A stretch of DNA of 64,000 nucleotides from Parcubacteria group bacterium Gr01-1014_17 (GTDB lineage Bacteria; Patescibacteriota; Minisyncoccia; Phycocordibacterales; UBA10002): the NCBI GenBank assembly GCA_007376285.1, contig VMFZ01000001.1:11033-75032 (forward strand), in the 5' to 3' direction. Below, one piece after another: positions 18,899-64,000 of this stretch. The position numbers and the translations under genes were made by a program. Under the pieces are notes generated by a model. The model ran no database searches. It was not told where the DNA came from and was given only the letters and a program-made list of their open reading frames with translations. The number at the start of each line of letters is the position of its first letter. Within the stretch, counting starts at the first letter, position 1.

Positions 18899-18901
18899 GT
18901 G

Positions 18902-21902: not shown

Positions 21903-21923
21903 AGCGCCATTATACAAGAAAAA

Positions 21924-21960
21924 GGCACCCGATGTTTGCCGCCTATCAACATCGGGTGCC
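21924..21960. repeat. family-H short palindrome GGCACCCGATGTTTGCCGCCTATCAACATCGGGTGCC in the ddl/MFS divergent region
   Basis: perfect inverted arms read in the sequence. Confidence 0.7.
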
Positions 21961-21984
21961 ATACCGCTATGCTACAATATATAC

Positions 21985-32440: not shown

Positions 32441-32830
32441 CGCTTTTATACAAACATTTTGCCCTCCTCATCGGCGGGCAAGCAAAATGACTGGATACAC
32501 TATCTTTGGCGGTCGCAAAGTTTAGTGTATATAGAAAGTTCTACCATACTACAAAGTATGAGAGAAGAAATTAGAGCGAACGAAACTCGTTGAGGCGCGC
32601 AGGTTTGCAAACATGGGTAAGGCACGAAGCGAAATGCTTTTTCAAAATGTCTGGAGCGAGTGGTCGCATTGCAGCGACCCGAGCGTTACCGAGGACTTTT
32701 GTAAAAAGCATTTTGCGGAGTGTCTTCCTTTCAATGCGCGCCGAGAAAGAGTTCTAAGAGACACCAGATGTTTGCCATCTATCCCGCCTCATCGGCGGGT
32801 CGCCGAGGAGGAGACAACATCTGGTGTCAA
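32440..32830. repeat. mosaic repeat island A with four modules: ATTTTGCC..GGCAAAAT hairpin (32456-32488), ACACTATCTTTGGCG..AGTGT (32497-32528), AGAGCGAACGAAACTCGTTGAGGCGCGCAGGTTTG (32573-32607), family-H palindrome (32761-32828)
   Basis: modules shared in the same order and orientation with island B (37100-37530) and partly with 59604-59660. Confidence 0.7.
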
Positions 32831-35316: not shown

Positions 35317-35327
35317 ATTTATTCTCT

Positions 35328-35396
35328 GGCGCCCGATGTTTGCCGCCTATCCCGCCTCATCGGCGGGTCGCCGAGGAGGAGACAACATCGGGTGCC
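35328..35396. repeat. family-H palindrome immediately upstream of the ClpA/B-like start codon
   Basis: GGCGCCCGATGTTTGCCGCCTATCCCGCCTCATCGGCGGGTCGCCGAGGAGGAGACAACATCGGGTGCC. Confidence 0.7.
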
Positions 35397-37099: not shown

Positions 37100-37530
37100 A
37101 TTCTCACGAATTAGTCCATACAAGTATTTTGCCCGCCTCATCGGCGGACAGGCAAAATACTGAAATACACTATCTTTGGCGACCTCTAGAGATAGTATGG
37201 GTATTCGCCTGACTATTCCAACTACTTGCTATAGCAGTTAATTGGAATAGTGAATAGTAATAGTGATAAAAATCACGGAGGCACCAGATGTCTAAATTGC
37301 AGACATCTGGTGCCGAAAAAAGAGCGAGCAAACTCGTTGAGGCGCGCAGGTTTGAGACGCCCTTGCGCAATCTGAAAACACGAAAGCGAGGAAGTACCTA
37401 TGCCGAGACGGCGAGGAGGCGAACGGCCATGGACTCCCGAGCGAAGCGAGGGAGGAGTGAGCCGAGCGGATAAGGCAAAATTCCTCGGAGGGGAATTTTG
37501 CCGGTCTCGGCAGAGGTAGCTTCCGAGCGC
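37100..37530. repeat. mosaic repeat island B: ATTTTGCC hairpin (37126-37158), ACACTATCT element (37167-37197), PaaX-type palindrome copy 3 (37213-37250), GGCACCAGATGTCT hairpin (37280-37314), AGAGCGAGCAAACTCGTTGAGGCGCGCAGGTTTG (37321-37354), GGCAAAATTCCTCGGAGGGGAATTTTGCC hairpin (37474-37502)
   Basis: direct-repeat partner of island A. Confidence 0.7.
37288..37473 (+). CDS. putative 61-aa highly basic small protein (weak resemblance to the ribosomal protein S21 C-terminal half)
   Basis: GGAGG 8 nt upstream of an ATG that lies inside the hairpin arm; K/R-rich; a decayed fragment of the same ORF occurs in island A. Confidence 0.3.
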   Translation: MSKLQTSGAEKRASKLVEARRFETPLRNLKTRKRGSTYAETARRRTAMDSRAKRGRSEPSG

Positions 37531-45000: not shown

Positions 45001-45339
45001 TTATACGGCAACCCGCCGCACATTGAACAAGCGCGAGACGCGCGTTAAGTCGCGCACGGCAAACACGGAGAGAACTGCGAGCGCGAGTGAGAGCGCTTGA
45101 ACAGTGAGTTCGGTATTAAGAAACGCTGAGAGCACAAATTTGCCGAATGCCGCAAACTCTGCCGGAGACGGCATATTGCCGAACACATTTTGCACCGACA
45201 CAAACGCAGTCGCGACAAGCGCGAGCGCCGCGACCGAGCCCATTTTCAAAAGAAACGGCTTCACCACTTTACGCAAAAAGAAGACCACATACACGCGCCG
45301 CATCACATCGCGCCTTACTGATTGAATATATTCAGCCAT
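45001..45339 (-). CDS. putative anti-sigma factor-like membrane protein
   Basis: 112 aa with 2 TM helices; 2 nt downstream of the ECF sigma gene in the same operon. Confidence 0.35.
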   Translation of the reverse strand: MAEYIQSVRRDVMRRVYVVFFLRKVVKPFLLKMGSVAALALVATAFVSVQNVFGNMPSPAEFAAFGKFVLSAFLNTELTVQALSLALAVLSVFAVRDLTRVSRLFNVRRVAV

Positions 45340-45341
45340 AG

Positions 45342-45749
45342 TTATTGTGAAATAAGTATTTTCTTCATTGCCTGCTTGGCGCGGTGCACCCGCGCCCGCA
45401 CCGCCCCCTCTGAAATCCCCACTGCGCGGGCGACTTCACGCTGAGGCTTGCCTTCAAGAAAATGCAACTCCACAACCCGTACCAATGTTACGGGCAATTT
45501 GGACATAAGCGAAACAATTGTGTCTCTGTCAAAGCGCGCTTCGCGCTCTATTTCTGCGCCTGCGTCGCGCACGAGCTCCATCAATTCCGGGTCTAGAAGC
45601 GAATTAAACTCTCTATCACGCTTTCCTTTTTTCCACGCGGTAAAACAGAGGTTCACGAGCACCTTGTACATCCACGACTTGACGGACGCGCCCGGCATCG
45701 GCTGGTAGCGCGCCGCGTTCAAGTAGATTTTTACAAACGCATCTTGCAC
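45342..45749 (-). CDS. ECF-type sigma-70 family factor (short region 2 plus region 4)
   Basis: DAFVKIYLNAARYQP..SWMYKVLVNLCFTAWKK region 2; VRVVELHFLEGKPQREVARAVGISEGAVRARV region 4 HTH; GTG start, with an upstream in-frame TGA limiting any N-terminal extension. Confidence 0.7.
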   Translation of the reverse strand: MQDAFVKIYLNAARYQPMPGASVKSWMYKVLVNLCFTAWKKGKRDREFNSLLDPELMELVRDAGAEIEREARFDRDTIVSLMSKLPVTLVRVVELHFLEGKPQREVARAVGISEGAVRARVHRAKQAMKKILISQ

Positions 45750-45869
45750 TACATCGAGCGCTTTTTCGTCGTCTTTCAGAATATAGCGCGCCTTGCGACA
45801 TCATCTAAAAACATAATGGGGTTTATAATAACACAAAATCTGTTTTTCCAAAAGAAAACCCACCCTCGA

Positions 45870-46160
45870 CTACTGTCGGGGTGGGTCATGCGGATTCGTC
45901 TTCGGATTCAGAAGGTTCGGGAGGAGGCGTCCCATTATTGTTGTTGAGAACCGCCTCCAAATACCCGACGACCGTGGACACTTTAATCCCGTGCCGCGGT
46001 TGCCGGCGATTCCATTCAAGAGATAACCAAGAATCAGAACAGCATCTGAATGCCTCAGTTCCGTATCGCTGTTGGCGATACCCGGAACCCACTTTCCTAT
46101 ATCTATCATCGCAGACATCACCTGCATCCGAATCCATCCGCGCGTGTATTTAGGTGTCAT
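45870..46160 (-). CDS. hypothetical protein (96 aa)
   Basis: AGGAG 8 nt upstream of the ATG; terminator hairpin AACCCACCCTCGACTACTGTCGGGGTGGGT + T-run spans the stop. Confidence 0.45.
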   Translation of the reverse strand: MTPKYTRGWIRMQVMSAMIDIGKWVPGIANSDTELRHSDAVLILGYLLNGIAGNRGTGLKCPRSSGIWRRFSTTIMGRLLPNLLNPKTNPHDPPRQ

Positions 46161-46338
46161 AAGACACTCCTTTCTTTTTGCGTATTTTTGATGTTTTTCA
46201 ACACAAAAACAATTCTGCCCGTACCCTATATCTAACCCATAAAAATGTCAACTATCCACATCTACCCTTGCGCGCCAATGAACAAACCATGCGATAATAG
46301 TGATGTCGCTTTTTTTATAAATAACTCTCATTACGCGT

Positions 46339-46512
46339 ATGTTTGAACAAGGACACAAAGGGCATTTGAGCATTATTCCCCTCTTAATGCTCCTCTTCGC
46401 GCTTGTATTTCTCTTTGATGCGCTTGGTTACATCTCGCCTGACACGACGGCGGTCGTCTGGCCGGTGATTGTGGGCGTGGCGGCAATCCTCAAGTTGGTT
46501 GGGGGAAGATAA
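46339..46512 (+). CDS. possible 57-aa two-TM membrane peptide
   Basis: ATG..TAA ORF that is hydrophobic throughout; below the ORF-track cutoff. Confidence 0.25.
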   Translation: MFEQGHKGHLSIIPLLMLLFALVFLFDALGYISPDTTAVVWPVIVGVAAILKLVGGR

Positions 46513-46592
46513 GCAAAAAGTGAAAAACCTCCCCGATGTTGATAGGCGGCAAACATCGGGGAGGTTTTTTCTTGGGCTAGAAAAAGGCGCGC

Positions 46593-46621
46593 TTGACTCC
46601 AAGCGCGCTTTGTGCTATGTT
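46593..46621 (+). promoter_or_regulatory. promoter A: TTGACT-N17-(TGC)TATGTT upstream of SPFH-A
   Basis: paralogous promoters at 48065 and 50260 with a conserved downstream leader TCyACACAGArrrTyA..yTTGACAAaAA. Confidence 0.5.
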
Positions 46622-46662
46622 TCTACACAGAAAGTCAGCGTTGGTTCGTTGACAAAAAAACA

Positions 46663-46695
46663 GTCGCCTCATCGGCGGGTCGCCGAAGAGGCGAC
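46663..46695. repeat. palindrome GTCGCCTCATCGGCGGGTCGCCGAAGAGGCGAC in the SPFH-A 5' UTR
   Basis: same family as 42154, 50324 and 56879. Confidence 0.7.
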
Positions 46696-46713
46696 AACAG
46701 AAAGGTGTAGAGT

Positions 46714-48003
46714 ATGTTTCCTATTATTGTGCTCCTCGCGGAGCTTGCATTTCTCGTTATTGCAACGCTTTTGCAGGGTATCCTTGCAGGTGTCGCAATG
46801 CTATTCGCCATCGGTCTTACCATCGTCTTCTTCTACTACGCCGCCAAGAACAAACAACAGGCGTCGTTTGTAAAGCAAGGCACGATCGAGTTTGTGGTTG
46901 CGGGTGAGACGCTTATCGATGTTTTGGAAAACATTGATGGTTGGCACTACCAAAAAAAGTCCGGCTGGTTCCCTTATCAAAAAAGAACAGGAAGAATGAA
47001 CCCTGATGGCACGCCGGAATTAATAGACGCATGGATAAAAGTTGAAGACGGCATAGTGCCAGACCAAAAAGGACCAACCACAACTCCGCCAACGAAGCCA
47101 AACGGAAAAAGTAGGGGTTCATTCCTTAAACGCAAATTCGGATTCTTCTGGGTAAGCGCTCTGTATCCGCTACGAAGGATTTACATCTTTCCTGTTACAC
47201 ATTTGCGACTGAAATCCGAAACTGCAATACCGCAAGACGCTAAACTGGAGGAATGGCTAGAAAGTTCTGTAAAAGACGCAAACGGTCAAACAATGAACAG
47301 CGACACCACTGAAGAAAAATTCCTCCTATGGAGGTTCCCGCGCCCCGTACTCGTTCGGAATGTGAAGTTCACCGACTTATTTGAAGTGAATATCCTCATT
47401 CTCGCCTATTTCCAGATCGTCAGCACGCGGCCGCTTGTGTTTGAGTACCGGGAAAAGTTCTTCCTGTTGCTCGAAAAAGCACTGCAGGCTGCGGCCATTG
47501 ACTATCTGCGAAAAAAAGAATACCAAAAATTCATCACTTCGGGCACGACTGGACATCAATCAGAGTTTTTCTGGGACGCCTTGGAAAAAATCAACTGGGT
47601 GGGAACTACCGCTGAATCAGGACGCGGGTTGGTCAAAGAGTTCGGCGTGTACTTGCAGAATGCCTGGGTTGTGCAAATTGAACTATCCAGACAAGACGAC
47701 AAAGCAAGAACCGCACTTAAGGCGCAAGAAATCGCGCGGTTAGAAGGAGAAGCGACGAAAACTACGGCAAAGGCGCAAGCAGAGGCAATTAAAACTGTTG
47801 CCGAAGCAGATGCTGAAGCACTTGAAAAACAAAAGACCGCTTCAAGCGAAGCGATACTCATTGCTAAATTACGCAAGGAGGCACTCTTGGGTACTAAACT
47901 CAGTACGCTTGTGGAAGGAGGAGGGAGCAGTAGAGTTACGGTGTCAACACCACCGCCTCCAACACCTCCACCACCTCCGACACCACCTACATCATCACCA
48001 TAG
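46714..48003 (+). CDS. SPFH/band-7 domain membrane protein A (divergent, with insertion; Pro-rich C-terminal tail)
   Basis: N-terminal TM helices; SPFH-like blocks FVKQGTIEFVVAGETLIDV / KFGFFWVSALYPLRRIYIFP; A/E/K-rich coiled coil; C-terminus STPPPPTPPPPPTPPTSSP. Confidence 0.55.
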   Translation: MFPIIVLLAELAFLVIATLLQGILAGVAMLFAIGLTIVFFYYAAKNKQQASFVKQGTIEFVVAGETLIDVLENIDGWHYQKKSGWFPYQKRTGRMNPDGTPELIDAWIKVEDGIVPDQKGPTTTPPTKPNGKSRGSFLKRKFGFFWVSALYPLRRIYIFPVTHLRLKSETAIPQDAKLEEWLESSVKDANGQTMNSDTTEEKFLLWRFPRPVLVRNVKFTDLFEVNILILAYFQIVSTRPLVFEYREKFFLLLEKALQAAAIDYLRKKEYQKFITSGTTGHQSEFFWDALEKINWVGTTAESGRGLVKEFGVYLQNAWVVQIELSRQDDKARTALKAQEIARLEGEATKTTAKAQAEAIKTVAEADAEALEKQKTASSEAILIAKLRKEALLGTKLSTLVEGGGSSRVTVSTPPPPTPPPPPTPPTSSP

Positions 48004-48064
48004 ACGGAGAATTGCGGAATTGTTCTTTAGAAACACACAACCAACCGGCGCTCCAAAGCGTCGG

Positions 48065-48093
48065 TTGACTTTTTATTACAGCTATGCTATATT
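48065..48093 (+). promoter_or_regulatory. promoter B: TTGACT-N17-(TGC)TATATT upstream of SPFH-B; overlaps the SPFH-A terminator hairpin
   Basis: hexamers plus extended -10 TG. Confidence 0.5.
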
Positions 48094-48160
48094 TCCACAC
48101 AGAAAATCAAGGATGAACCTTGACAATAAAAACGCAGAGAAACTTGAAAGGAATTGAGGT

Positions 48161-49402
48161 ATGAAGAAATGGTTGAAATCTATATACAGGAAAATCAAAC
48201 CCGCAAGAACATTCTGGACCACTGTTGCAATTGTCTATTTAACAGCGTTGTTTGTGATTATTATGACAAACAGCGACATGAAATTGCTGGGTACAGAACT
48301 ATCGTGGAATTGGGGACGAGCAACTTTCTGGACTTTGTGCTTTTACACATTGCTCAGTTTGCGCGTTGTGAAGGAAGATGAGGTTGGTGCACGGTTATTT
48401 TTCAGAAGACCGTTGCACAACCTTTCTTCCGGGCTTGTTTTCATTCCCCTTGGCTTTTGCCAAATCGTAAAAGAAACACGACTCATCATGCAGGACGAAC
48501 TGCCTGCGCCGCCGGAAAAAATCTGGCGAACTAAAAAAGGCAAGCGCGGCGAAGCATCACCAGAAGCAGATGTGGTGCCTGCCGATAAAGCAAAGGAGGG
48601 GTACAAACCTCCTATTAGGATAACATTCGGAGCACCGAATGTGGAATTACCAGAAAATACTACCGACAAGGTAGAACAAGAACAGAATATTGAAATCAAC
48701 AAACACATTAAGAAAATCAGGGAGGCGCAACAGGGAGAAAATGGTGTGCGTGACCCTTTTGATTTTCGAATGACCGCGGAAGTGTTTCTTATTATTCGGT
48801 GGAGAATAGACGACTTTGTTAGATTTATCTCCACTATCGGCACAATAGATAAAGCGCGGACTCAAATTGAGGATACGGCAACCGCAGCGGTTACTCGGGC
48901 TTTTGCAAAAATCAGCCCAGCAGTGGCGCTCGCGCATTTGGGGACTCAAAGCAAGTATTTACGCGCAGAAATTGAAGAGCGGATAAGCGGAAAGGGTGAG
49001 GAAAAAAAGAGGTTGCCGTGGGGAATAAAAATGGAAACAGCACAAATTAAGCTCATCAATTTCAGCCATGAGTTTAACGATGCGGTACAGGAACGAGCTG
49101 AGGCGGAAGCAATCGCACAAGTGAAAGCTACGGAAGGAAAGGGCGAGGGAGACAAAGAAAAACGGATACTGACTGGAAGGGCGGATGGGTTGAAGCATAT
49201 GGCGAAAGAACTCGGTGTATCATCAGCAGCAGTGCTTGCGTCTGAAACGGCGCGAGCCATTACGCAAAATCCCGGTCAGAAGACAATCATTGCCGGTTCG
49301 GGGGGCCTTGCAGATCTAATGGGAGTTGTTACGGCGTTAGGACAGACACTCGGCGGTGATAAAAACAAAACACAAGAAAAGAAAGGAGATACAAATGTTT
49401 GA
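48161..49402 (+). CDS. SPFH/band-7 (stomatin/HflK/C-like) membrane protein B
   Basis: VKEDEVGARLFFRRP..GLVFIPLGFCQIVK..TRLIMQDE canonical band-7 N-terminal blocks; AEAEAIAQVKATEG coiled coil. Confidence 0.8.
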   Translation: MKKWLKSIYRKIKPARTFWTTVAIVYLTALFVIIMTNSDMKLLGTELSWNWGRATFWTLCFYTLLSLRVVKEDEVGARLFFRRPLHNLSSGLVFIPLGFCQIVKETRLIMQDELPAPPEKIWRTKKGKRGEASPEADVVPADKAKEGYKPPIRITFGAPNVELPENTTDKVEQEQNIEINKHIKKIREAQQGENGVRDPFDFRMTAEVFLIIRWRIDDFVRFISTIGTIDKARTQIEDTATAAVTRAFAKISPAVALAHLGTQSKYLRAEIEERISGKGEEKKRLPWGIKMETAQIKLINFSHEFNDAVQERAEAEAIAQVKATEGKGEGDKEKRILTGRADGLKHMAKELGVSSAAVLASETARAITQNPGQKTIIAGSGGLADLMGVVTALGQTLGGDKNKTQEKKGDTNV

Positions 49403-50183
49403 ATTCATCATTCCAGCATTACTTGCGGCGGTTGTTTGGGCGGTATGGTTAAAGCCCACCACGACCAGTAGTGCAATCGCGGGTACAGAAGGACCACCCA
49501 CACCATCTGTTTCGTTGGATACTAAAGTTAAAACGATTGTGAAATGGGCGGTTGGAGTGCTTGGCGGATTGCTCATTATCTACGGCGTGTGGAGCGGGAA
49601 TTGGCGTGCATGGTGGAATGGTTCCGTCACTTATGTTGCAGACACATTGGGGCTATTTGGCCACTATTGGCTCATCGTGCTCGGTGCGGTCGTCTTGCTT
49701 CTTCTGCTTTGTTACGCGGGAGCAAGAGACGGCAAAACCGCTGGCGAGCGAATTGAAAAAGCAATGAAAATTGGTTTCTCCTTCGCAGTCCTTGCGGCGC
49801 TTCTCGCCGTTACCGCAGTGTTCGGCATAATCATTGTCGGACCGCGGTACTTCTGGGGCGAGCCGAGTGTGATTCAGGTTCAGCAACCGGCGACGCAAAG
49901 GCAAGCACAAACGCAGACTTCGTCGCGATCCTTCACCACAACAGCACATCCTGGCGATCCGCAAGACCCGCGCGCTCCGTGGAGCGCGTCAGTTGTCGTA
50001 AATGGCAGGCGTTTCAGCGCCGATGTGGTCGGCGCACAAAGCACGGTACCGATGGCGGTACTTGCAGATGGAGTGGTTCACATAATCGCTCCAGGATTGC
50101 GGCCGCACATTGGTGCGCCGCAAGAAATCCGGTTTCTATCGCTCACCAACTTTCCGCTTCATATAATCGGTACGATTGAGTGA
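49395..50183 (+). CDS. SPFH-associated 3-TM membrane protein D1 (NfeD-like by position only)
   Basis: 8-nt overlap with the SPFH-B stop (ATGTTTGA); paralogue of 51459-52145 (shared GPRYFWGEPSVIQVQQ, FLSLTN). Confidence 0.55.
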   Translation: MFEFIIPALLAAVVWAVWLKPTTTSSAIAGTEGPPTPSVSLDTKVKTIVKWAVGVLGGLLIIYGVWSGNWRAWWNGSVTYVADTLGLFGHYWLIVLGAVVLLLLLCYAGARDGKTAGERIEKAMKIGFSFAVLAALLAVTAVFGIIIVGPRYFWGEPSVIQVQQPATQRQAQTQTSSRSFTTTAHPGDPQDPRAPWSASVVVNGRRFSADVVGAQSTVPMAVLADGVVHIIAPGLRPHIGAPQEIRFLSLTNFPLHIIGTIE

Positions 50184-50204
50184 GTAAACACACAGGCGTT
50201 CGCT

Positions 50205-50235
50205 GAAAAGCGAACGCCTGATTTTTTATCCGCCT
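50205..50235 (+). terminator. Rho-independent terminator CAGGCGTTCGCTGAAAAGCGAACGCCTG + ATTTTTT (second weaker hairpin ATCCGC..GCGGATTTTT follows)
   Basis: perfect 10-bp stem plus T-run. Confidence 0.7.
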
Positions 50236-50259
50236 CGCATCTATAGAGCGGATTTTTAC

Positions 50260-50288
50260 TTGATAAAAAGCCCCGACTATGCTAATTT
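50260..50288 (+). promoter_or_regulatory. promoter C: TTGATA-N17-(TGC)TAATTT upstream of SPFH-C
   Basis: paralogous to promoters A and B; leader contains palindrome 50324-50356. Confidence 0.45.
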
Positions 50289-50385
50289 CCTACACAGAGT
50301 TAGACCTTTGACAAAAGACAACTGTCGCCTCATCGGCGACCCGCCGAAGAGGCGGGAACAAAACTGAAAGAACGGAAAAATTGTT

Positions 50386-51459
50386 ATGAAAATACCGAGA
50401 TTCTTGAAACGATCAACAAACATTTTACTTCTAATTCTTGCAAACCTGCTCGCAGTCCTGTTTGCACAAATCATTCTTCGGAGCGCCTTTGAACCTTCGT
50501 GGTTTCTGACACTTGTTATCAGCACGGTAATTATTCCCATACTGACAACTTCGGGACTCGTGGAAATCCCGATTCAACACGCAGGCGTACCGCTCATATT
50601 CGGAAAACGACAGAAAAACTGGCTTCTTGACGAAGGGCTTAACTGGATTCTTCCTACGCCGTTCATGGGGGTAGAAATTGTTGATGTGCAGGAAAAAACA
50701 ATCCGGATTCCAGCGTCAGAAATTGAAGAAGACGCAAGGCCTCTCATTATTCCCGCAATCAGAGGACTACCTGCTCTTTCAAAAGATGGCAAAGCGGAAG
50801 AAACAACTCTCAACGAAGAAATATGGGGAAAAATCAGGTTCGTGCAGATGAAAGTGCGGCTGGCAATCCGGTATCGGGTGGTTCATCCATACCAGTTTCT
50901 GAGCCAAGAACCCAGCGTGGTGGAACGAGGACTCGGCGATTTGACTATCAAAACGCTCCGACAGAAAGGTTCGGAGATGAGCGACATACAACTCATCCGG
51001 CTCAAAGACACCTTTGAGGCGGACATCATCAAAGAAATGAAAAAAGAACAAGCGTATGAAGGAAGTAAAAAGACAACAGAGGAAAGCCCTTTAGAAAGAT
51101 GGGGCGTTGTTGTTCATAATGTATTCATTCCGCGAATCCTCCACGCCGACCCGGAAATGACAAAAATGTACGAAGCCGCAATGCGTGAAGAACAACAGTG
51201 CACCTCAGAAAACATTGAACAAGAGTTCCTTACCGCAAGTATTGAACGATTGGTCAAAAAAGGACTCACAGCACAAGAGGCACTGCTTGCGATTCAAGCA
51301 GAACGCGGAAAGCTCACGCGGCGTGAAGTGATAATCACGAGCACAGGCGGAGGAGCTGTTGGAGACATTGCCAAAGCAGTTGCGACATACGCAGGACTAC
51401 TTGGCGACCAACCAAAAACAGAACAAAATGAGAATCAAAATCAGAAAGGAGATAACTAA
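50386..51459 (+). CDS. SPFH/band-7 membrane protein C
   Basis: IQHAGVPLIFGKRQKNWLLDEGLNWILPTPFMGVEIVDVQEKTIRIP band-7 N-terminal block; 357 aa. Confidence 0.75.
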   Translation: MKIPRFLKRSTNILLLILANLLAVLFAQIILRSAFEPSWFLTLVISTVIIPILTTSGLVEIPIQHAGVPLIFGKRQKNWLLDEGLNWILPTPFMGVEIVDVQEKTIRIPASEIEEDARPLIIPAIRGLPALSKDGKAEETTLNEEIWGKIRFVQMKVRLAIRYRVVHPYQFLSQEPSVVERGLGDLTIKTLRQKGSEMSDIQLIRLKDTFEADIIKEMKKEQAYEGSKKTTEESPLERWGVVVHNVFIPRILHADPEMTKMYEAAMREEQQCTSENIEQEFLTASIERLVKKGLTAQEALLAIQAERGKLTRREVIITSTGGGAVGDIAKAVATYAGLLGDQPKTEQNENQNQKGDN

Positions 51460-52145
51460 TGACCTTTGCAATCGATAAATGGAAAAAGAATGTGTGGAAA
51501 ATCGCTCTATGGAGCGCGTTTGGTCTTTTGGCAATTAAGTTTGCTATTTGGCCATTACTTCAGGGCACATACGACAAAGTCCGTTCGGTTGGAAAAAAAG
51601 AAATCGGGATTGTTGAATGGTTGCCGAACTTAGGTCCCTATTGGCTCGTAGCACTTGGTGCAGTCGTTTTGTTTCTCCTGCTCATATATGCAGGAGCGAA
51701 AGACGGCAAGACCGCAAGCGAGCGGCTCCAAAAAGCAATCAAGATTGGTTTTGCATTTGCTGGACTTGCGGCGCTTCTCGCCTTTACCGCGTTTCTCGGC
51801 ATTTTCATTGTCGGGCCGCGGTACTTCTGGGGCGAACCGAGCGTCATTCAGGTTCAACAACAGCCGGCGGCGCAGGTGCGGGCATCGGAATTTCCAAAAG
51901 AGTTCCGCGTGTCTGCGCTTCCGGGAAACCCGCAAGACCCAAACGCGCCGTGGAGCGCGCCGATACGGTTTGCAGGGCGGCGCGGAAGTTTCCAACTTGC
52001 GGGCGATTCTGCGCCAATCGCCGTAAAAACAGAAGTGGGCATCCACATAATTACAGTAGGGATGCCCCACCTGGGCACACCAGAGCGATTGCAGTTTCTA
52101 TCACTCACCAACCGCTCCCTTGAAATCACGGGGAGAGTTGAATGA
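51459..52145 (+). CDS. SPFH-associated 3-TM membrane protein D2 (paralogue of D1)
   Basis: start overlaps the SPFH-C stop; shared motifs with D1. Confidence 0.55.
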   Translation: MTFAIDKWKKNVWKIALWSAFGLLAIKFAIWPLLQGTYDKVRSVGKKEIGIVEWLPNLGPYWLVALGAVVLFLLLIYAGAKDGKTASERLQKAIKIGFAFAGLAALLAFTAFLGIFIVGPRYFWGEPSVIQVQQQPAAQVRASEFPKEFRVSALPGNPQDPNAPWSAPIRFAGRRGSFQLAGDSAPIAVKTEVGIHIITVGMPHLGTPERLQFLSLTNRSLEITGRVE

Positions 52146-52190
52146 GAAACACGACAGCCACGACGAAAGTGTCGGGGCTGTTTTTTGTTA

Positions 52191-52448
52191 TCAAAACGGA
52201 CACGCAACTCCTATTGTCCCGCAAATCACCCGCACAATACCTTTCGCTCCGAGCATCACTGCCATCCCGAGTACTCCCCAGAGCATTACCCATCCGCCTT
52301 TTTTGCGCTCCTCCTCGCTATCCAAGTGCGCCAAGAACATATACACCCCCCACGCGAAGGTGAGAGACGCGACCCCGAACATAAGATAAATCAGGGGGTT
52401 CAGAATATTCTCCCCGATTTTGTTGATGAAGGTGTTAATTGCAGCCAT
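52191..52448 (-). CDS. VirB2/TrbC-like small two-helix membrane protein P6 (divergent)
   Basis: two hydrophobic helices separated by DSEEERKKGG. Confidence 0.45.
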   Translation of the reverse strand: MAAINTFINKIGENILNPLIYLMFGVASLTFAWGVYMFLAHLDSEEERKKGGWVMLWGVLGMAVMLGAKGIVRVICGTIGVACPF

Positions 52449-52451
52449 TAA

Positions 52452-52808
52452 CTAAAAATTGAGCAAACCTGGAACATTCGGTAAGTTTTGACCAGCCCCC
52501 TGACCACCTCCGGTAAATGTGTTTTGCAAAAGCTTTACAAGACCAAAGATTGAAAAAGCAACGAACATACCGATAACCGCGTAAATCATAGTATTACGCG
52601 CTGAAGTTCGCTTTTCTTCATCTCCGCCAGAATTGACATATCCAATCACACCAACAAAGAAATAAATAAGCAAAAGTCCCCCTACAATAGGAATAACGAG
52701 GTTAATGATTTGTCCAACTGTCGTTGCCAAACCTCCTAGATTTCCCGTTTGCGCCAACGCCACAAATGGCACTGCATACAACGCCGCACTGACTAATACT
52801 TTTTTCAT
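52452..52808 (-). CDS. VirB2/TrbC-like pilin-family protein P5
   Basis: signal peptide + helix + SGGDEEKRTSARNTMIYAVIGMF + helix. Confidence 0.55.
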   Translation of the reverse strand: MKKVLVSAALYAVPFVALAQTGNLGGLATTVGQIINLVIPIVGGLLLIYFFVGVIGYVNSGGDEEKRTSARNTMIYAVIGMFVAFSIFGLVKLLQNTFTGGGQGAGQNLPNVPGLLNF

Positions 52809-52993
52809 AATATCCTTTTTAATAAACTAATAAATAATTATGACCTTTTTTTAATGACCGCTTTATATTATATACCATCCAAAAGACCTGCAACAGAGAT
52901 GCTGTGGACAACACCACTCCGCCTCGCTTCGCTCGGCACCCCTCCTCAGTTGAGGAGGGGAAAGGGGTGGTGGTGTTTGATATCGTGGACAAA

Positions 52994-53395
52994 TCAGGGA
53001 AGCCTCGGCACGATTGGGATATCGCCAGGGTTTAGGTGAATAAATGGACTACCGGGTAAGAAAAAGGTGTTGCGCACAAGATTTACTAACCCCCAAACGC
53101 TAAACATCACAAACATACCGATAACGGCATAAATCATATAACTGCGCGCCGCCGCCTGTTTTTCTTCATTGTCGGCTTTGAGGACATACTGGATAATTCC
53201 CCAGAAGAACCAAATGAGCGCCAAAGCGCCGACGATAAAACTGACTAAACTCAGAAGGTCTAGCAATATAAGAACAATGTTGCCGAGCGGGGTTCGCGCC
53301 GCAGGGTTGAGCAAGAGTTGAGTGCGAAGCGGTTGCGCGAATACAAAGAGAGGTAGAATAAATAACAAAAAAGAAGAAAAGATAAATTTTTTCAT
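52994..53395 (-). CDS. VirB2/TrbC-like pilin-family protein P4
   Basis: KADNEEKQAAARSYMIYAVIGMF loop between two helices; start at MKKFIF. Confidence 0.55.
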   Translation of the reverse strand: MKKFIFSSFLLFILPLFVFAQPLRTQLLLNPAARTPLGNIVLILLDLLSLVSFIVGALALIWFFWGIIQYVLKADNEEKQAAARSYMIYAVIGMFVMFSVWGLVNLVRNTFFLPGSPFIHLNPGDIPIVPRLP

Positions 53396-53399
53396 ATAT

Positions 53400-53720
53400 T
53401 TAATTGCAGTTGCCGGGGCCAAGCAAGCTTAAACAAATAATTTTGGCTGCGCCCCAATACACCAATAACGCCGCAAGACCGAGAACTCCGAAAAGCGCCG
53501 TTTGTTTGAACGCGCTCATTTTTTTCTCATCTCCACCGCCTCCCGCTCCGATATATCCGGCTATTTTTGCAAATACGACAAACCAAGCAAGAATGAGAAT
53601 GGCAAAAAGCGCCACATTAATATGGTCCAGCGTTAAATTAATCAACCCTTTAAAATCGGTTGGTGCGGCGAGGGCAAAAGATGGGGCAAATGCAAGAAGT
53701 GTTGGAAATAATTTCTTCAT
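53400..53720 (-). CDS. VirB2/TrbC-like pilin-family protein P3
   Basis: signal peptide MKKLFPTLLAFAPSFALA; GAGGGGDEKKMSAFKQTALFGVLG. Confidence 0.55.
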   Translation of the reverse strand: MKKLFPTLLAFAPSFALAAPTDFKGLINLTLDHINVALFAILILAWFVVFAKIAGYIGAGGGGDEKKMSAFKQTALFGVLGLAALLVYWGAAKIICLSLLGPGNCN

Positions 53721-53721
53721 T

Positions 53722-54102
53722 TTATTTCAACGAATTGATAGTGGTTTCCAAGATTGTTGCAAGCGCTTGCGCACCAAGCAATATCGCCGTGCCGATGACT
53801 GCGTATAAAATCGCTTTTTTTGCATCTTTGTGCTTTTCTTCGTTGCCGCCAGCGGTCACAAACAAAAATCCAGCGTAAATAATGAAAAATACTGCGACCA
53901 CGCCACCTATATCGGAAACAATCACGAGTATCTTCGCCGCAAGCGCTTGAAAGGTTGTGGTTGCACCGAGTGGGTTTGGTAAGGTGGTTAAACCCCCACC
54001 GGTAACTCCAGTACCTCCTCCGGTAACGCCTGTGTGTTGTGTAGCGGACGCCTCTCCAGCGGAAAGCAGAAACCCTATTATTACCCAAAATGTCTTTTGC
54101 AT
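53722..54102 (-). CDS. VirB2/TrbC-like pilin-family protein P2 (Gly/Thr-rich N-region)
   Basis: TAGGNEEKHKDAKKAILYAVIGTA loop motif; start at Met58; family-H palindrome 54121-54158 in the 5' UTR. Confidence 0.55.
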   Translation of the reverse strand: MQKTFWVIIGFLLSAGEASATQHTGVTGGGTGVTGGGLTTLPNPLGATTTFQALAAKILVIVSDIGGVVAVFFIIYAGFLFVTAGGNEEKHKDAKKAILYAVIGTAILLGAQALATILETTINSLK

Positions 54103-54176
54103 AGTGTTAAGTATATCACGAGGAGGCACCAGATGTTTGCCGCCTATCAACATCTGGTGCCACTTCCCTACCACAA

Positions 54177-54578
54177 TCAACCCCCAAGAAAAGAGAAGGC
54201 ACTTGGAACACCGAGTCCAATCAAAATCAATTTGACAATAAGCCATGCAGAAAGCATCCAGACAAAACCCCATACGACTGGCATAAACATTCCGCGTCCT
54301 TTTTCCATTTTGGATTCATTGCCCCCTGCGGTCAAAATGAGAAACCCGGCATAGGCAAACACCAGCGCGGCAATTGAACCGCCAATCATAATCAGAAAGT
54401 TAATGATATTATTGATGCCGATGATGAAGTGGCGAAATTCGCAGGGGTTTGAGATCTCTTCGTACGAACCAGTCGCACCAGTTACAGTCCGTGTCTCCGT
54501 TCCGCACGGCACGATTGGGGCGGCGTGGGCAAAGATAGGTAAAATCACAAAAATAGAAATTAGTGCGAGTATATACAT
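54177..54578 (-). CDS. VirB2/TrbC-like pilin-family protein P1
   Basis: TAGGNESKMEKGRGMF loop motif between helices; start at Met32, because the ORF's N-terminal 31 aa are a translation of repeat R1. Confidence 0.55.
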   Translation of the reverse strand: MYILALISIFVILPIFAHAAPIVPCGTETRTVTGATGSYEEISNPCEFRHFIIGINNIINFLIMIGGSIAALVFAYAGFLILTAGGNESKMEKGRGMFMPVVWGFVWMLSAWLIVKLILIGLGVPSAFSFLGG

Positions 54579-54660
54579 CCTCCGTCTCCCTACGGGAGAC
54601 ACCTCCCTCAAGGGAGGATTTTCTTTACTCCCCCTTTGAAGGGGGGTTGGGGGGATGTGA
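54578..54660. repeat. triple-hairpin GC repeat R1 (GTCTCCC..GGGAGAC / CCTCCCTCAAGGGAGG / CCCCCTTTGAAGGGGGG + TTGGGGGGATGT)
   Basis: about 85 nt; near-identical copies R2 (63303-63385) and R3 (63760-63850, inside a CDS). Confidence 0.75.
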
Positions 54661-54667
54661 TTTTTAT

Positions 54668-55948
54668 TCATCTTAATAATCTCTCTAACCCGCTCCGCAG
54701 GTCGCCGACGCCATTAGTAAGCTGTCCTCTACCGCCGGTAATATCTTCAACGACCGACTGGAATAATTTGGTCGTTTCGGTCGGATTCGGGTCAAGGAAA
54801 CTCCGCGCCTGTAAGGCCGCTTCGTAAAACACCGATTTCGCCGCGCTCTCTTGCTTGCGCTCTAAAAGCGCGCGGAGCGGCGGCACGGTGCCGAGTGCAT
54901 TGGCTAAGGTAACCGACCTTTGAGAATCCGCGAGTGCAAACCCGAGTCGTATCGCTCCGCCCGGATTTTTTCCGGTTTTCAGCGCAGCCAACCCCCATGT
55001 TTTGCCGAACGAAACCGTGAGCTTTGAATCCCGCGTCTGCGGAAACGGCGTTGCCGACATATTCAAATGCGGATTTTTCTCGCGAAGCCCTGCATATTCC
55101 GACGCAAAGCCGAAATAAAGCGCGAGGTCTCCAGACGCAAACATATTGTGCGATTGTGGAAGCCCGCGGTTCCAGGTGTAAAGCTTTTTTACTGGGTTCG
55201 CAAACTCCGTGAAAAACCCGAGTGCGCTTCCAGCATTTGCCCAGTCCTCAAGCGAAACCGCGAATCCTTCCGTTCCGCCCGCCTGTACGGGCAGGCGCGA
55301 AACAAGCTTGCCGCCGCTTTGGAAAAAGAGCGCCGAGAGAATCTCTTTTGCATTGGTAATGTTCCGAAATTCTCCAAGCGACACCGCCGCGCTCTGAATT
55401 TGCCCCAGCCGGTTGCGCACGACAAGCCGCGGCGTACCGGTAATCAATTCATCCCAATAGCGCGGCGGTCGCGCAATGTTTGCCGCACCAAACCGGTCGC
55501 GATTCCAATATGCGACCAGCGGGTCTACCGTAAGAGGGACCGCGATGGCTCCAGTTGTGCTCAAAAACACTTCTGCAGCTTCTACAAACGAGTCCTTAAA
55601 CTTCCGCTCCGAAAGCGTATCTAAAGGAATCGGCACAATTTTGTCGCCATGCCGCACCACGAGGTCGGATGGTAAAATAATTGCATCAGGACCTCTCCCT
55701 GCCGCGAGCGCTTCTATAAACTCCTGCTCAAACTTGTCTGCGCGAATCTCAGTGTATGTAAGCTTAAAATCATCTCCAGAAAAATCTGCTGTCGCGGTGG
55801 AAAACGCAGAACTCGGAAACGAGCCCCATACATCAAGCACCGCTGGTCCGCCACCCGCGGGCGTGCCTTTGAAAAGAGAAAAAGCAACCAGACCGCCAAT
55901 GGCGGCTATCACAAAAACAGCGAGCAAAATTATTTGAAATGGTCTCAT
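54668..55948 (-). CDS. membrane-anchored extracellular solute-binding protein (ABC-type SBP family 1-like)
   Basis: N-terminal TM anchor, 426 aa, two-lobe SBP-like composition; no specific substrate assignable. Confidence 0.55.
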   Translation of the reverse strand: MRPFQIILLAVFVIAAIGGLVAFSLFKGTPAGGGPAVLDVWGSFPSSAFSTATADFSGDDFKLTYTEIRADKFEQEFIEALAAGRGPDAIILPSDLVVRHGDKIVPIPLDTLSERKFKDSFVEAAEVFLSTTGAIAVPLTVDPLVAYWNRDRFGAANIARPPRYWDELITGTPRLVVRNRLGQIQSAAVSLGEFRNITNAKEILSALFFQSGGKLVSRLPVQAGGTEGFAVSLEDWANAGSALGFFTEFANPVKKLYTWNRGLPQSHNMFASGDLALYFGFASEYAGLREKNPHLNMSATPFPQTRDSKLTVSFGKTWGLAALKTGKNPGGAIRLGFALADSQRSVTLANALGTVPPLRALLERKQESAAKSVFYEAALQARSFLDPNPTETTKLFQSVVEDITGGRGQLTNGVGDLRSGLERLLR

Positions 55949-56567: not shown

Positions 56568-59075
56568 TTATAGCACCGTCACCGACGCAATAGCATCGCC
56601 TTCGCGCAGTTTCATTATTCTAACACCTTGCGTTGCCCGCCCGAGGCGCGGAATTTCCGAAGCCGCAATCCGAATCACTTGGCTCTTCTTGGAAATCGCA
56701 ATTACTTCGTCCGTTTCTCCTTCGGAAAGCACGCGCGCGGCGATTACCCTGCCGGTCTTTGTTGTTACTTTTGCGGTCTTGATACCCGAGCCGCCGCGCT
56801 TTTGTGTTTTATACTCTTTAAAGTAGGTCGCCTTGCCGTACCCATTTTCAGACAGTATGAAAAGAGATGCTTGTCTTTCCGCCTCATCGGCGGATCGCCG
56901 AAGAGGCGATTTGACGACCACAACGCCCGCCACCGAATCGCCTTTTTTACCAAGCTTAATGGCGCGCACGCCACCGGCGCCGCGCCCCATCGCACGAATA
57001 TCGGACTCTCTAAATCGGATGGACTGTCCTGCTTCAGATACAACAGCGCATTCGTCGCCTTTTTCCACAAACGATGCGGAAATAAGCTCATCGCCGGCTT
57101 TCAGCGAAATCGCAATCAAGCCGCTTCGGCGCACATCATGGAAGCTCTCTGCCGCGATTTTCTTTCCGACTCCGTTTTTCGTCACCATCATCAACGCGAG
57201 CCCGGCGAGAGCTTTCGCCGCTTTTGGCATCGGCAAAATTGAAGTTACGCGTTCTTCGGATGAAAGCGAAAGAAAATTGGCGATGGATTTGCCGCGCGTC
57301 GCGCGTTTGCCTTCGGGAATTTCGTACATTTTCACCTTATACACCTTGCCGCGGTCGGTGAAAAACAAAAGGTCGCTGTGTGTCGTCGTGGAAAGCGTGC
57401 TCATTACAAAATCCTCTTCTTTCGTGTCCAAATCAACAACACCGACCCCGCCGCGCCGCTGCCGTTTATACTCATCGGGAGCGGTGCGCTTCACATAGCC
57501 GCCGCGCGTAAATACCAACACGCTTTCGTTGTCCGGAATCAAATCCTCGTCGGAAAGCTCGGCAACACCACCCTTAACAATTCTCGTGCGGCGTTCGTCT
57601 CCATACTTCTCGCCCACTTCCAACAGTTCTTTTTTAATAAGCGCGAGAATCTTTTTTGGGTGCGCGAGCAAATCAACAAGCTCGCCGATAAGCGTCTGCA
57701 CAGAAAGCAATTCATCTTCAATTTTCTTACGCTCCAAGCCCGCAAGCTTCTGCAGGCGCATTTCCAAAATCGCGTTCGCTTGTATTTCGGAAAGCTTGAA
57801 CGATTTCATCAAACCAGCGCGCGCCTCGTCTACATCCTTCGCATTCTTAATCAACTTCACAATCGCGTCAATGTTTTTGAGAGCAATCGTGAGCCCGAGC
57901 AAAATGTGCTCGCGCTCGCGGGCTCGCGCGAGGTCAAATTCGCTCCGGCGGCGCACCACTTCCTTGCGGTGCCCGATAAATGCTTCAAGAAACGCTTTAA
58001 GCGAAAGGGTTTCCGGCACGCCGCCGACAAGCGCGACACAATTGTAATGGAACGATTCCTCCAGTTGTGTATGCTTGTAGAGCGCATTTAGAATCTTTTC
58101 TGGGTACGCGCCTTGTTTTAGTTCAACCACCACCCGAATGTCTTTGGTTGATTCATCGCGGAGTCCCCGAATGCCTTCAAGTTTTTTGTCGCGCACCAAG
58201 TCCGCAATTCGCATAATAAGCTCTGCTTTGTTTACGCGATACGGAATGGAAGTAATGATAATCTGAAAGTGCCCCGCTTTTTCCTCAACTATTTCCGCCT
58301 CGCCTCGCACAACTACTGGCCCTTTGCCGGTTGCATACGCGTGCGCGATAGCTTTCGCGCCATAGGCAACGCCGCCAGTCGGAAAGTCAGGGCCTTTTAC
58401 GAATTGCAAGAGGTCTTCGGTGGTTGCGCTCGGATTTTCAATCAAATGCGCTGTTGCGCCCACGACTTCAGTTAAATTGTGCGGCGGAATGTTGGTCGCC
58501 ATACCGACGGCAATGCCGAGCGTGCCGTTCAACACCAAATTTGGCACCGCAGTCGGCAGAACGACTGGTTCTTTCCGCGTCGCATCATAGTTCGGTCGAA
58601 AATCAACCGTTCCTTTTTCAATGTCCCGCAACATATCCCCTGCGATACGCGACATTTTCGCCTCCGTGTACCGGTACGCCGCGGGAGCGTCGCCGTCTTG
58701 CGAACCAAAATTTCCTTGACCAATCACAAGCGTGTAGCGAAACGAAAATGTCTGCGCCATTTTGACCATTGCATCATAGACGGACACATCGCCGTGTGGG
58801 TGATACTTGCCGAGCACATCACCAACAACCGTCGCCGATTTTCTGGTCTTTGCGGCGGCCGTAAGCCCCATTTCGTGCATAGAAAAAAGAATGCGGCGAT
58901 GCACGGGCTTCAGCCCGTCGCGCACATCCGGAAGCGCGCGCGAGGTAATAACCGACATCGCATAGTCAAGATACGACTCGCGCATCTCCTTCACAATTTC
59001 GCGTCCCACCAGCTTTCCGCCAACCGGCACACCAGCTGGAAGTGGCCCACCTTTTGCCTTTTTAGCGTCTGACAT
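56568..59075 (-). CDS. gyrA: DNA gyrase subunit A
   Basis: [25 protein letters not shown] active-site region (Tyr-containing), GyrA-box beta-pinwheel C-terminal domain; 835 aa. Confidence 0.97.
56879..56908. repeat. palindrome CCGCCTCATCGGCGGATCGCCGAAGAGGCG inserted in frame in the gyrA C-terminal domain (encodes ..[11 protein letters not shown]..)
   Basis: same element as in the rpmE tail and the SPFH 5' UTRs. Confidence 0.75.
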
Positions 59076-59555: not shown

Positions 59556-59730
59556 AAACCGACTCGCGACCCGTAAGTACTTTTGTACTGCGGGTCTGTT
59601 TTTTATACAGCTATTTTGCAAAATACTGAAATACACTATCTATGGCGACCGCAAAAGTTAGTGTGCACGCATTTAGCATTAAGATACGGCCGTAGCTTAT
59701 TGCTACAAAATCCTACCCCAACCCCCTCCT

Positions 59731-63397: not shown

Positions 63398-64000
63398 ATG
63401 CAACCATTGAAAAAAGAAAAAGTAAATACGGAATTCATAACCGCACACAAGAATGCAAAAACAAATTACCACTTCGTGCTTTGGTACGGCGCCGAGCGCA
63501 CGATTCTTGTTAAACACGAGCCCTATCAATACGCTCTACCAACCTTGCCGCCCGCTCGCTGGCTCTACCTTTCCTCAATCGGAAGCGGTACCGAAAAATA
63601 TCACGAGGATATTGCCGATTATCTTGCGAAAAACCCGTCCGTAAAATTCGCATTCCAGCCGGGAACATTCCAGATTAAACTTGGCACAGAAAAACTGAAG
63701 GGTCTGTACGAGCGCGCGGAGGTGTTGTTTGTAAATCGTGAGGAAGCGGAAAGAATCACATCCTCCGTCTCCCTTCGGGAGACACCTCCCTCAAGGGAGG
63801 AATTAAAATCCCCCTTTCAAGGGGGTGCCCGAAGGGCGGGGGATGTAAAAACCCTCCTCACAAACCTCCACGCGCTCGGACCAAAAATCGTATGCGTTAC
63901 TGACGGACCGAAAGGCGCATATATGGCGGATGAAAGAGGCGCATACTTTATGCCTCCCTACCCCGACCCCAAGCCGCCTGTTGAGCGCACCGGGGCAGGT
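63398..64000 (+). CDS. PfkB-family carbohydrate/ribokinase-like kinase (partial, runs off the window) with an in-frame 30-codon repeat insertion
   Basis: ALPTLPPARWLYLSS..LGPKIVCVTDGPKGAY..VERTGAGD (DTxGAGD anion-hole motif). Absent from the ORF track because it has no stop in the window; 603 nt = 201 complete codons. Confidence 0.75.
   Translation, partial: MQPLKKEKVNTEFITAHKNAKTNYHFVLWYGAERTILVKHEPYQYALPTLPPARWLYLSSIGSGTEKYHEDIADYLAKNPSVKFAFQPGTFQIKLGTEKLKGLYERAEVLFVNREEAERITSSVSLRETPPSREELKSPFQGGARRAGDVKTLLTNLHALGPKIVCVTDGPKGAYMADERGAYFMPPYPDPKPPVERTGAG
63760..63850. repeat. repeat R3 translated in frame inside pfkB (..TSSVSLRETPPSREELKSPFQGGARRAGDVKT..)
   Basis: near-identical to R1; exactly 90 nt. 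Confidence 0.75.

Follow-up and report, generated by a model that had tools for sequence, protein, structure and literature searches.

Background

Operons in which a gene for an SPFH (band-7) membrane protein is followed by one for an NfeD-type partner are the closest described relatives of the locus reported here, and the C-terminal domain of NfeD is a five-stranded OB-fold beta-barrel (e.g. PDB 2EXD). Candidate Phyla Radiation (CPR) bacteria, or Patescibacteria, rely on cell-surface machinery for life on host cells; arrays of VirB2-like pilins are abundant among them and essential in one case. NfeD proteins begin with about three hydrophobic stretches, which a short hydrophilic linker joins to a soluble all-beta C-terminal domain, and duplicated SPFH genes are known within operons of the SPFH-NfeD type (PMC2636767). 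Of the VirB2-like pilins of Patescibacteria, 441 tandem and highly divergent arrays have been described (PMC12102498). Here we analyze a 64-kb stretch of DNA (the window) from Parcubacteria group bacterium Gr01-1014_17, an ultra-small CPR bacterium from groundwater, in which three genes for SPFH or SPFH-like proteins (A, B and C) and two genes for a membrane partner (D1 behind B, D2 behind C; locus tags G01um101417_62 for B, G01um101417_63 for D1 and G01um101417_65 for D2) lie beside such a pilin array.

We propose, with a little more confidence than doubt, that this locus is a hypervariable slot for an SPFH scaffold and its partner, conserved beside a VirB2-like pilin array in Paceibacteria/Parcubacteria, and that three alternative cassettes are stacked in it in this genome. 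The cassettes look as if they were exchanged by recombination, making this a fast-evolving site rather than one of simple gene duplication.

One slot, alternative cassettes

The related slots compared are those of loci L001-L010, L033 and L034; the wider neighborhood was followed in L011-L016 and 15 genome loci. In L001, L002 and L004-L007 the same flanks enclose one C-like SPFH gene (62-67% identity to C) with an overlapping D gene. The shared left flank there comprises PolX, an anti-sigma factor, an ECF (extracytoplasmic function) sigma factor and a membrane open reading frame (ORF) of 57-58 amino acids (aa), and the right flank is the pilin array, which in L004 extends to a solute-binding protein, a methyltransferase and GyrA, as in the window. 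The same flanks in L008 hold an A-like gene (53% to A), with D about 100 nucleotides (nt) downstream behind its own promoter, and L009, L010 and L033 are arranged likewise, with an A-like gene and then D. L034 carries a B-like gene (75%) with an overlapping D whose N-terminus is like that of D1. L003, with a C-like gene, and L033, with an A-like gene, both begin directly after the same tRNA 3' end. A search for the same cassette in related genomes, suggested by a first-pass annotation of this DNA, thus finds it present, though with one type per slot and not three.

The contents of the slot vary far more than its surroundings. Flanking proteins are mostly 85-100% identical between the window and its sister genomes (ECF sigma factor 85-93%, first pilin 80-91%, and the 57-aa ORF 76-100%, with 100% to L008 and 98% to L001), whereas identity falls to 53-67% among the SPFH proteins and to 41-58% among the D proteins. 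A blastn map of the window resolves this variation into segments of different affinity. Positions 45014-46661 follow L008 at 80-85%, right up to an inserted palindrome; the likeness to L008 is then gone across most of A and comes back at 49780-50193 (86.7%, the 3' half of D1) and in the first pilin. Positions 48302-49453, which span B and the 5' part of D1, match L034 at 74%, and 50487-51725, which span C and the 5' part of D2, match L001 at 72%. The window is therefore a composite on an L008-type backbone (an A gene followed by a type II D), in which B and the 5' half of its associated D appear to have replaced the promoter and 5' half of the backbone D, and to which a complete L001-type C-D cassette was apparently added later, ahead of the pilins. 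A, B and C themselves are anciently diverged cassette types.

This composite structure refutes a simple duplication in situ, and it bears directly on the first-pass annotation, which had read the locus as a duplication of whole units including their regulatory DNA. A recent doubling in tandem of a single SPFH-partner unit and its regulatory DNA, with later divergence of the copies, would fit the restriction of the promoter/leader motif to these three genes and the resemblance of D1 to D2 (55% identity, with a 240-nt tract at 79%), but A, B and C are unalignable with each other by BLASTP and have much closer orthologs in other genomes, the sister slots hold a single type each, the mosaic D1 and D2 owe most of their likeness to one tract and have ends that match different orthologs (90-93%), and the palindrome common to two leaders is a dispersed element, independently inserted and missing from the orthologous leaders. 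We regard such a duplication as scarcely credible.

The three cassettes might also be strain-specific alleles of a single-cassette locus that were concatenated during assembly, as the presence of one cassette per slot in close relatives and the origin of the sequence from a metagenome bin would allow. Such an artefact is very unlikely: the junctions hold unique terminator and promoter sequence, the three upstream regions, at 66% mean column identity, offer no long repeat to mislead an assembler, and concatenation would not create D1, which is an in-frame recombinant with a 5' half that follows B and a 3' half that follows the L008 backbone.

Strong divergence of the cassettes between flanks of mostly 85-100% identity, types that replace each other in one slot and mosaic genes are also features expected of a conflict or defense cassette, that is, a membrane module swapped by recombination in an arms race with phage or with the host organism (e.g. 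superinfection exclusion or abortive infection). We consider this rather improbable, as all the related genomes examined have the pair, which in this resembles a core function, and as it contains no enzymatic effector domain; PADLOC had no match for any of the five proteins, and a literature search on SPFH proteins and anti-phage defense found nothing relevant.

The SPFH proteins

The five forward-strand ORFs and the Pro-rich tail of A are as first described (Table 1); the description of A, B and C as three paralogous SPFH proteins holds in part. B and C exceed the 23.6-bit gathering score of the Pfam Band_7 model (PF01145), at 34.6 and 43.8 bits, respectively, while A stays below it, and no pair among the three is significant by BLASTP (E 0.016-0.3). 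A profile of 25 B-like proteins matches the Pyrococcus stomatin PH1511 (3bk6; E 2.7e-11) and also the solved structures of human stomatin, prohibitin, QmcA and HflK; the profiles of the C and A families had no match among solved structures in the same type of search against PDB. Profile-profile comparison with hhalign joins C to the B family (85% probability, E 5.8e-6). For the A family, a weak Band_7 match recurs in all four members (best E 0.0073). Thus, B and C are distant SPFH proteins, whereas A is a very divergent SPFH candidate, a plausible but unproven assignment, and none of the three is a recent paralog of another. Their closest relatives are in other genomes: at 75% for B (L034), 62-71% for C and 51-63% for A (L008, L009, L010 and L033). 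B-like SPFH proteins are widespread in Patescibacteria, with 53 matches at 28-75% identity.

The partner proteins are mosaics with an NfeD-like layout

An alignment of D1 with D2 shows 55% identity over 182 aa (E 1e-50), and the motifs by which their kinship was first recognized, GPRYFWGEPSVIQVQQ and FLSLTN, occur in both. They are true paralogs, as had been claimed, and yet mosaics; the accompanying label of three-transmembrane (TM) proteins suits D2, which has three hydrophobic segments, but not D1, which has four. Residues 1-56 of D2 are 93% identical to P0002, the type I D partner of a C-like gene, and 22% to D1, whereas residues 57-137 are 74% identical to D1 and 54% to P0002. The C-terminal third of D1 is 90% identical to P0006 of L008, against 28% for its N-terminus: its C-terminal half corresponds to the L008 partner of an A-like gene (87% in nt, 90% in aa) and its N-terminal half resembles the partner of the B-like gene in L034. 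From the identities of the D2 segments, with the end resembling P0002 and the middle D1, the 240-nt direct repeat that the two genes share (79% nt identity) emerges as an intragenomic gene-conversion tract in which the middle of D2 was converted towards D1.

The family is tiny, with 12 members in a word-indexed search of 5.8 billion proteins and 17 clusters in a full profile search of 1.84 billion representatives, one of which, P0083 (966 aa, repetitive), looks spurious. The first-pass annotation had remarked that D occupies the position usual for NfeD without a recognizable NfeD motif, and both halves of that remark are borne out: D holds the partner position in one operon with the SPFH gene, overlapping B and C here and its SPFH gene in L001-L007 and L034, and the NfeD hidden Markov model (HMM; PF01957) matched none of 12 D-family members (E up to 10) and none of 10 partners taken from other lineages (E up to 1). 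In architecture, D corresponds to the NfeD layout, with about three N-terminal hydrophobic stretches, a hydrophilic linker and an all-beta C-terminal domain. In an AlphaFold2 (AF2) model of D2, residues 3-42, 61-81 and 86-122 are helical and 125-142 form a disordered linker, after which six strands (147-227) make up this C-terminal domain (predicted local distance difference test score, pLDDT, 82-91). The OB fold that had been raised as a possibility for D1 and D2 is not what the model returns: the modelled domain resembles the small cupins and other double-stranded beta-helices of the jelly-roll type. D is therefore predicted to be an NfeD-type operon partner by position and architecture that falls outside NfeD in both sequence and modelled fold.

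Translational coupling of D1 to B and of D2 to C, also proposed earlier, is well supported by the gene junctions: B and D1 have 8 nt in common (ATGTTTGA), C and D2 have 1 nt (TAATG), and AAAGGAGA stands upstream of both D starts, within the final codons of B and C. Behind A-like genes (L008-L010 and L033), D is uncoupled and has its own promoter, TTGACT-N17-TGCTATAAT (in L008, intergenic 3281-3381), so that coupling appears to depend on the cassette type. The leader hairpin of D in these four loci is also a different one (GTTGC...GCRAY).

Conserved adjacency to VirB2-like pilins

Right of the slot lie six small convergent ORFs, the pilin-like array of the first-pass annotation, whose identity is now supported by the T4SS_pilin model (PF18895; cut-off 26.6 bits): four of the six score 29.9-44.7 bits, one reaches 26.5 bits and one has no match. 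A pilin array adjoins the slot in all related loci examined. The association reaches well beyond them: a B-like SPFH gene, a partner and a convergent pilin array occur together in the metagenome loci L011-L016 (three loci, L011, L013 and L015, plus duplicates). All 15 genome loci that were informative have the same arrangement; they belong to Kaiserbacteria, Wolfebacteria, Paceibacterota and bins that carry the label Saccharibacteria. The partner in those loci has 127-257 aa and 2-4 TM segments, and its start overlaps or abuts the SPFH stop codon; the array has 2-7 genes on the opposite strand and follows immediately or after one to three ORFs, often with SBP_bac_1, methyltransferase and GyrA genes beyond it. 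These partners belong to several families that share the layout, are mutually undetectable by sequence and escape the D profile: the best score of the D-family HMM against partners of B-like genes in other lineages was E 0.0035 in a 17-sequence database, at less than 7 bits, which does not establish homology. The left flank differs by lineage (ECF sigma factor, tRNA, IF2/RbfA, RNase J or UvrA). In the published account of VirB2-like arrays of Patescibacteria, SPFH proteins are mentioned nowhere (PMC12102498), and a non-exhaustive literature search found no paper linking SPFH proteins with pilin arrays or with CPR/Patescibacteria.

It is at this point that a more general role has to be weighed, namely membrane-protein quality control of the HflK/C or QmcA-YbbJ type, acting with FtsH and unrelated to the pilins, with inherited synteny as the cause of the adjacency. 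Stomatin, prohibitin, QmcA and HflK are the nearest kin of the B family, an interaction of SPFH-NfeD pairs with FtsH has been described in model bacteria (PMC2636767), and no ATPase of a type IV secretion system (T4SS) was found nearby among the ten large ORFs of the window that were checked. Nevertheless, the pair is always beside the pilin array while the left flank varies between lineages, and a housekeeping factor is not expected to be far more variable than its neighbors. We judge such a general role somewhat unlikely, though deserving to be taken seriously.

Transcription units, promoters and leaders

Each unit ends in a terminator of its own and starts from a strong extended -10 promoter of the sigma-70 type, behind which comes a short leader composed of a 5'-proximal hairpin, then an A-rich tract and the ribosome-binding site. 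The terminators and promoters between them point to three independent transcription units, A, B-D1 and C-D2. All three SPFH genes had been credited with the same extended -10 promoter: A and B do have it and C has a related motif, but one that differs in both boxes (TTGATA-N17-TAATTT), and the combination of -35 and extended -10 represents a strong promoter of a generic kind, with further copies in the window at 24922 and 59142 and similar promoters in distant Paceibacteria. The kinship of the three regions does pass a significance check, which the first-pass annotation had left to be made: the -10/start motif TGCTANNTTNCYACACAGA occurs exactly three times in the 64 kb, against 0.06 expected, only upstream of A, B and C. 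Only short exact words are common to the three regions.

Within the leader, YAGAA precedes a hairpin of the form (G)TCA-stem-loop-stem-TGAC. In an alignment of 11 leader sequences, 94% of the hairpin cells pair, against 17-51% in slid controls, and two of the seven pairs carry changes on both sides, with GC, GU, AU and CG all seen at one of them. The covariation score of 0.242 exceeds all slid controls and a shuffled mean of 0.109, and was exceeded in none of 500 shuffles. As the loop varies in length (4-6 nt), a nucleic-acid hairpin is favored over an operator with fixed spacing, and the hairpin may serve as a 5' stabilizer of the mRNA. A second promoter at the leader TTGACA was considered and rejected, as no -10-like element stands at the right spacing in any ortholog; an attenuator or terminator was likewise rejected, the tract that follows being A-rich and not U-rich. 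Within 46450-52250 nothing in Rfam matched at E up to 1, and in the whole window the only matches at its gathering score were three tRNAs.

The leader appears to follow the lineage of the genome and not the type of the downstream gene. CCCGATAGAACCGTCAAGGTCnGnACTTTGACATAA is common to the leaders of L033, L034 and L003, which precede A-like, B-like and C-like genes, respectively, and the leader of A is nearly identical to that of L008, though the A-like proteins are only 53% identical. Such a sharp boundary between leader and gene agrees either with recombination at a leader that stays constant or with strong selection acting on that leader. A scan of metagenomes with the leader pattern found just two more loci, both of the L004 type.

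Two side observations concern the region upstream of A. A 9-bp GC-rich palindrome at 46587-46608 (GCGCGCTTG-ACTC-CAAGCGCGC) holds the -35 of promoter A in its loop; it is kept in L001, L002 and L008 and might act as a second terminator for the small ORF, or else as an operator that overlaps the -35. Farther left, 45001-45749 on the reverse strand encode the ECF-type sigma factor and, downstream of it, a 112-aa membrane protein that is likely its anti-sigma factor; these two and the 57-aa ORF are mostly 85-100% identical in L001, L002, L004 and L008. The SPFH promoters look sigma-70-type, beside this flanking regulator of the envelope-stress type.

A dispersed palindromic element

The palindrome that the first-pass annotation saw in two of the leaders is there, in those of A and C, but it is not specific to leaders: it is a 31-nt dispersed element, YCGCCTCATCGGCGGRTCGCCGARGAGGMGA, of which the window contains seven copies, oriented alike on the + strand. 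The hairpin that it forms has 14 bp and leaves the ribosome-binding site free. One copy within gyrA gives GyrA 8 extra residues relative to the closely related GyrA of L004 (K--KSAE--K). Multi-copy, dispersed, hairpin-forming and insertion-polymorphic against orthologous sites, the element behaves like the repetitive extragenic palindromes (REPs) and Rickettsia palindromic elements (RPEs), and it appears to have been inserted secondarily and independently into leaders A and C. Being dispersed and absent from the orthologous leaders, it provides no evidence for a common descent of the leaders.

Three copies are nested in the loop of terminator-like hairpins (12660-12728, 32759-32827 and 35327-35395), which belong to a family with the stem CACCMGATGTT / AACATCKGGTG and the conserved loop TGCCGCCTATC; members free of the element lie at 21923-21961, 54124-54162 and 46528-46564 (reverse complement).

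Small dispersed repeats are unusually abundant here for a reduced CPR genome. A 47-nt repeat with two short hairpins (TCCGTCTCCCTACGGGAGAC and CCTCCCTCAAGGGAGG) occurs at 54575-54621 and 63758-63804 with 96% identity; because the 5' portion of the 164-aa pilin ORF as listed (54177-54671) contains its first copy, the N-terminal extension of that ORF is probably non-coding. Further short repeat families are found at 18831-18928, 19481-19550 and 37183-37280, and at 12263-12291, 12624-12652 and 59604-59632; one family is ACTATTCCAACTACTTGCTATAGCAG, promoter-like with TTGCTATAG. A perfect palindrome, TATACAGACATTTTGCAAAATGTCTGTAT, has two copies 361 nt apart, and hairpins of the CCCCTTGAGGGG type stand upstream of the promoter in L001 and L002.

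Table 1. Coordinates of genes, signals and repeats in and around the slot (positions in the window)
Feature	Position	Strand	Remarks
Conserved 57-aa membrane ORF	46339-46512	+	left edge of slot; weak LiaI/LiaF-like TM match (PF18917, 19.3 bits, below cut-off)
Terminator of small ORF	46528-46570	+	hairpin and T-run; loop GATAGGCGGCAA; conserved-loop hairpin family
Promoter A	46593-46621	+	TTGACT-N17-TG-n-TATGTT; conserved in L001, L002, L008
Leader hairpin A	46634-46653	+	GTCAGCG-TTGGTT-CGTTGAC
31-nt element in leader A	46664-46694	+	absent from orthologous L008 leader
A	46714-48003	+	429 aa; 2-TM; Ala/Glu/Lys-rich helical region, Pro-rich tail; predicted to be transcribed alone
A terminator	48042-48067	+	3' arm runs into -35 of promoter B
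Promoter B-D1	48065-48093	+	TTGACT-N17-TG-n-TATATT
Leader hairpin B	48107-48123	+	TCAAGG-ATGAA-CCTTGA
B	48161-49402	+	413 aa; stomatin-like SPFH, 2-TM hairpin, predicted cytoplasmic SPFH domain
D1	49395-50183	+	262 aa from ATG; GTG start of the listed 275-aa form lies upstream
D1 copy of D1/D2 tract	49656-49895	+	TM2-TM3 and GPRYFWGEPSVIQVQQ
Two tandem terminator hairpins 3' of D1	50193-50253	+	first at 50193-50220
Promoter C-D2	50260-50288	+	TTGATA-N17-TG-n-TAATTT; weaker
Leader hairpin C	50299-50312	+	weak; GTTAG-ACCT-TTGAC
31-nt element in leader C	50325-50355	+	absent from orthologous L001 leader
C	50386-51459	+	357 aa; SPFH type found singly at slot in L001, L002, L004-L007
D2	51459-52145	+	228 aa; 3-TM, Q/P-rich linker, C-terminal all-beta domain
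D2 copy of D1/D2 tract	51630-51869	+	51764-51874 is 85.6% identical to L008 D gene
Terminator-like hairpin and T-run 3' of D2	52161-52187	+	hairpin at 52161-52174
Six small VirB2-like pilin genes (PF18895)	52191-54671	-	convergent; conserved right flank of slot
31-nt element inside gyrA	56879-56909		gyrA at 56568-59075 (-); in frame, GyrA C-terminal domain

Mechanistic interpretation

By analogy with stomatin, QmcA, HflK/C and flotillin, the SPFH protein of each cassette would insert into the membrane via its 2-TM hairpin and form a ring or cage on the cytoplasmic face. The co-translated D, with 3-4 TM helices and a probably extracytoplasmic beta-sandwich domain, might be built into this assembly or enclosed by it, taking the role that NfeD has in the classical operons without homology to NfeD, while the hairpin in the 5' leader would stabilize the mRNA. 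The module might then organize, or control the quality of, membrane proteins that belong to the cell-surface apparatus, and the likeliest of these are the adjacent VirB2-like pilins in their membrane pool.

Several points count against the hypervariable-slot reading as a whole. The genome is a metagenome-assembled genome (MAG). The functional steps are drawn entirely from analogy and synteny; the link between SPFH proteins and pilins in particular consists of conserved synteny alone, in small genomes whose synteny is generally high, and neither VirB4 nor other T4SS machinery was found among the ten large ORFs of the window. For A, the Band_7 score is 16.5 bits (E 0.0094) against the 23.6 bits of the gathering score, and the hhalign probabilities are 4.6% with the B family and 0.5% with the C family; its single-sequence AF2 model, with a pLDDT of 46.8, was unusable and was discarded. 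The model of D was built on 12 sequences and has a whole-chain pLDDT of 67.7. The orientation, with SPFH domains facing the cytoplasm and the beta domain of D facing outward, would follow from the positive-inside rule only. Finally, the four outermost base pairs of the leader hairpin (GTCA/TGAC) are invariant, which is compatible with an inverted repeat bound by a protein.

A bolder version of this interpretation, which we think unlikely as it stands, would make the SPFH-partner pair a swappable specificity or compatibility module of a VirB2-like pilus surface apparatus in episymbiotic Paceibacteria. Mutually unalignable cassettes would then be traded between strains by homologous recombination, anchored on the left by the constant promoter and leader and on the right by the conserved middle of D or the pilin flank. 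The conserved leader would double as expression signal and recombination anchor, and several cassettes, each with its own promoter, would come to be stacked in genomes such as Gr01-1014_17.

For the hypervariable slot itself, the unexpected features are the polymorphism of the cassettes, the mosaic partner genes, a leader that tracks the lineage and the conserved adjacency to pilins. If the reading is right, an SPFH-partner operon beside the array gives a concrete candidate factor for the assembly or quality control of pilin arrays, and a pair that evolves much faster than its neighbors, in interchangeable types, would be a natural site for the study of strain-level diversification. The partner slot of an SPFH operon can apparently hold an NfeD-like architecture with a different predicted fold and without detectable homology to NfeD. 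The locus is also a cautionary case, in that the likeness of its regulatory DNA seems to come from a leader constant across the lineage and a dispersed palindromic element, and not from duplication of a unit.

Comparison with known systems

The leader palindrome resembles REPs and RPEs in being short, multi-copy, dispersed and hairpin-forming, and its copy in gyrA recalls the in-frame insertions of RPEs. RPEs are, however, much longer than 31 nt, and the seven copies of the element described here, in distinction to REPs and RPEs, all have the same orientation on the + strand.

The pilins beside the slot are of the same small PF18895/TrbC type as those of the arrays described from Patescibacteria, and are likewise tandem and divergent (PMC12102498). 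They differ from them in that VirB4 is not adjacent among the ORFs checked, and the convergent SPFH-partner operon is a new neighbor for such an array.

Among SPFH-NfeD operons, the comparison is with Pyrococcus PH1511/PH1510, E. coli QmcA-YbbJ, YqiK-YqiJ and B. subtilis FloT/YuaG-YuaF, to which the B family is tied by the match of its profile to PH1511 and human stomatin. The partner sets the locus apart: it lacks an NfeD (PF01957) signal in the 22 proteins tested, its modelled beta domain is a small cupin/jelly-roll and not a five-stranded OB barrel, and it is extremely lineage-restricted, with its 17 clusters among 1.84 billion representatives. In addition, the locus described here is polymorphic for three unrelated-looking SPFH types.

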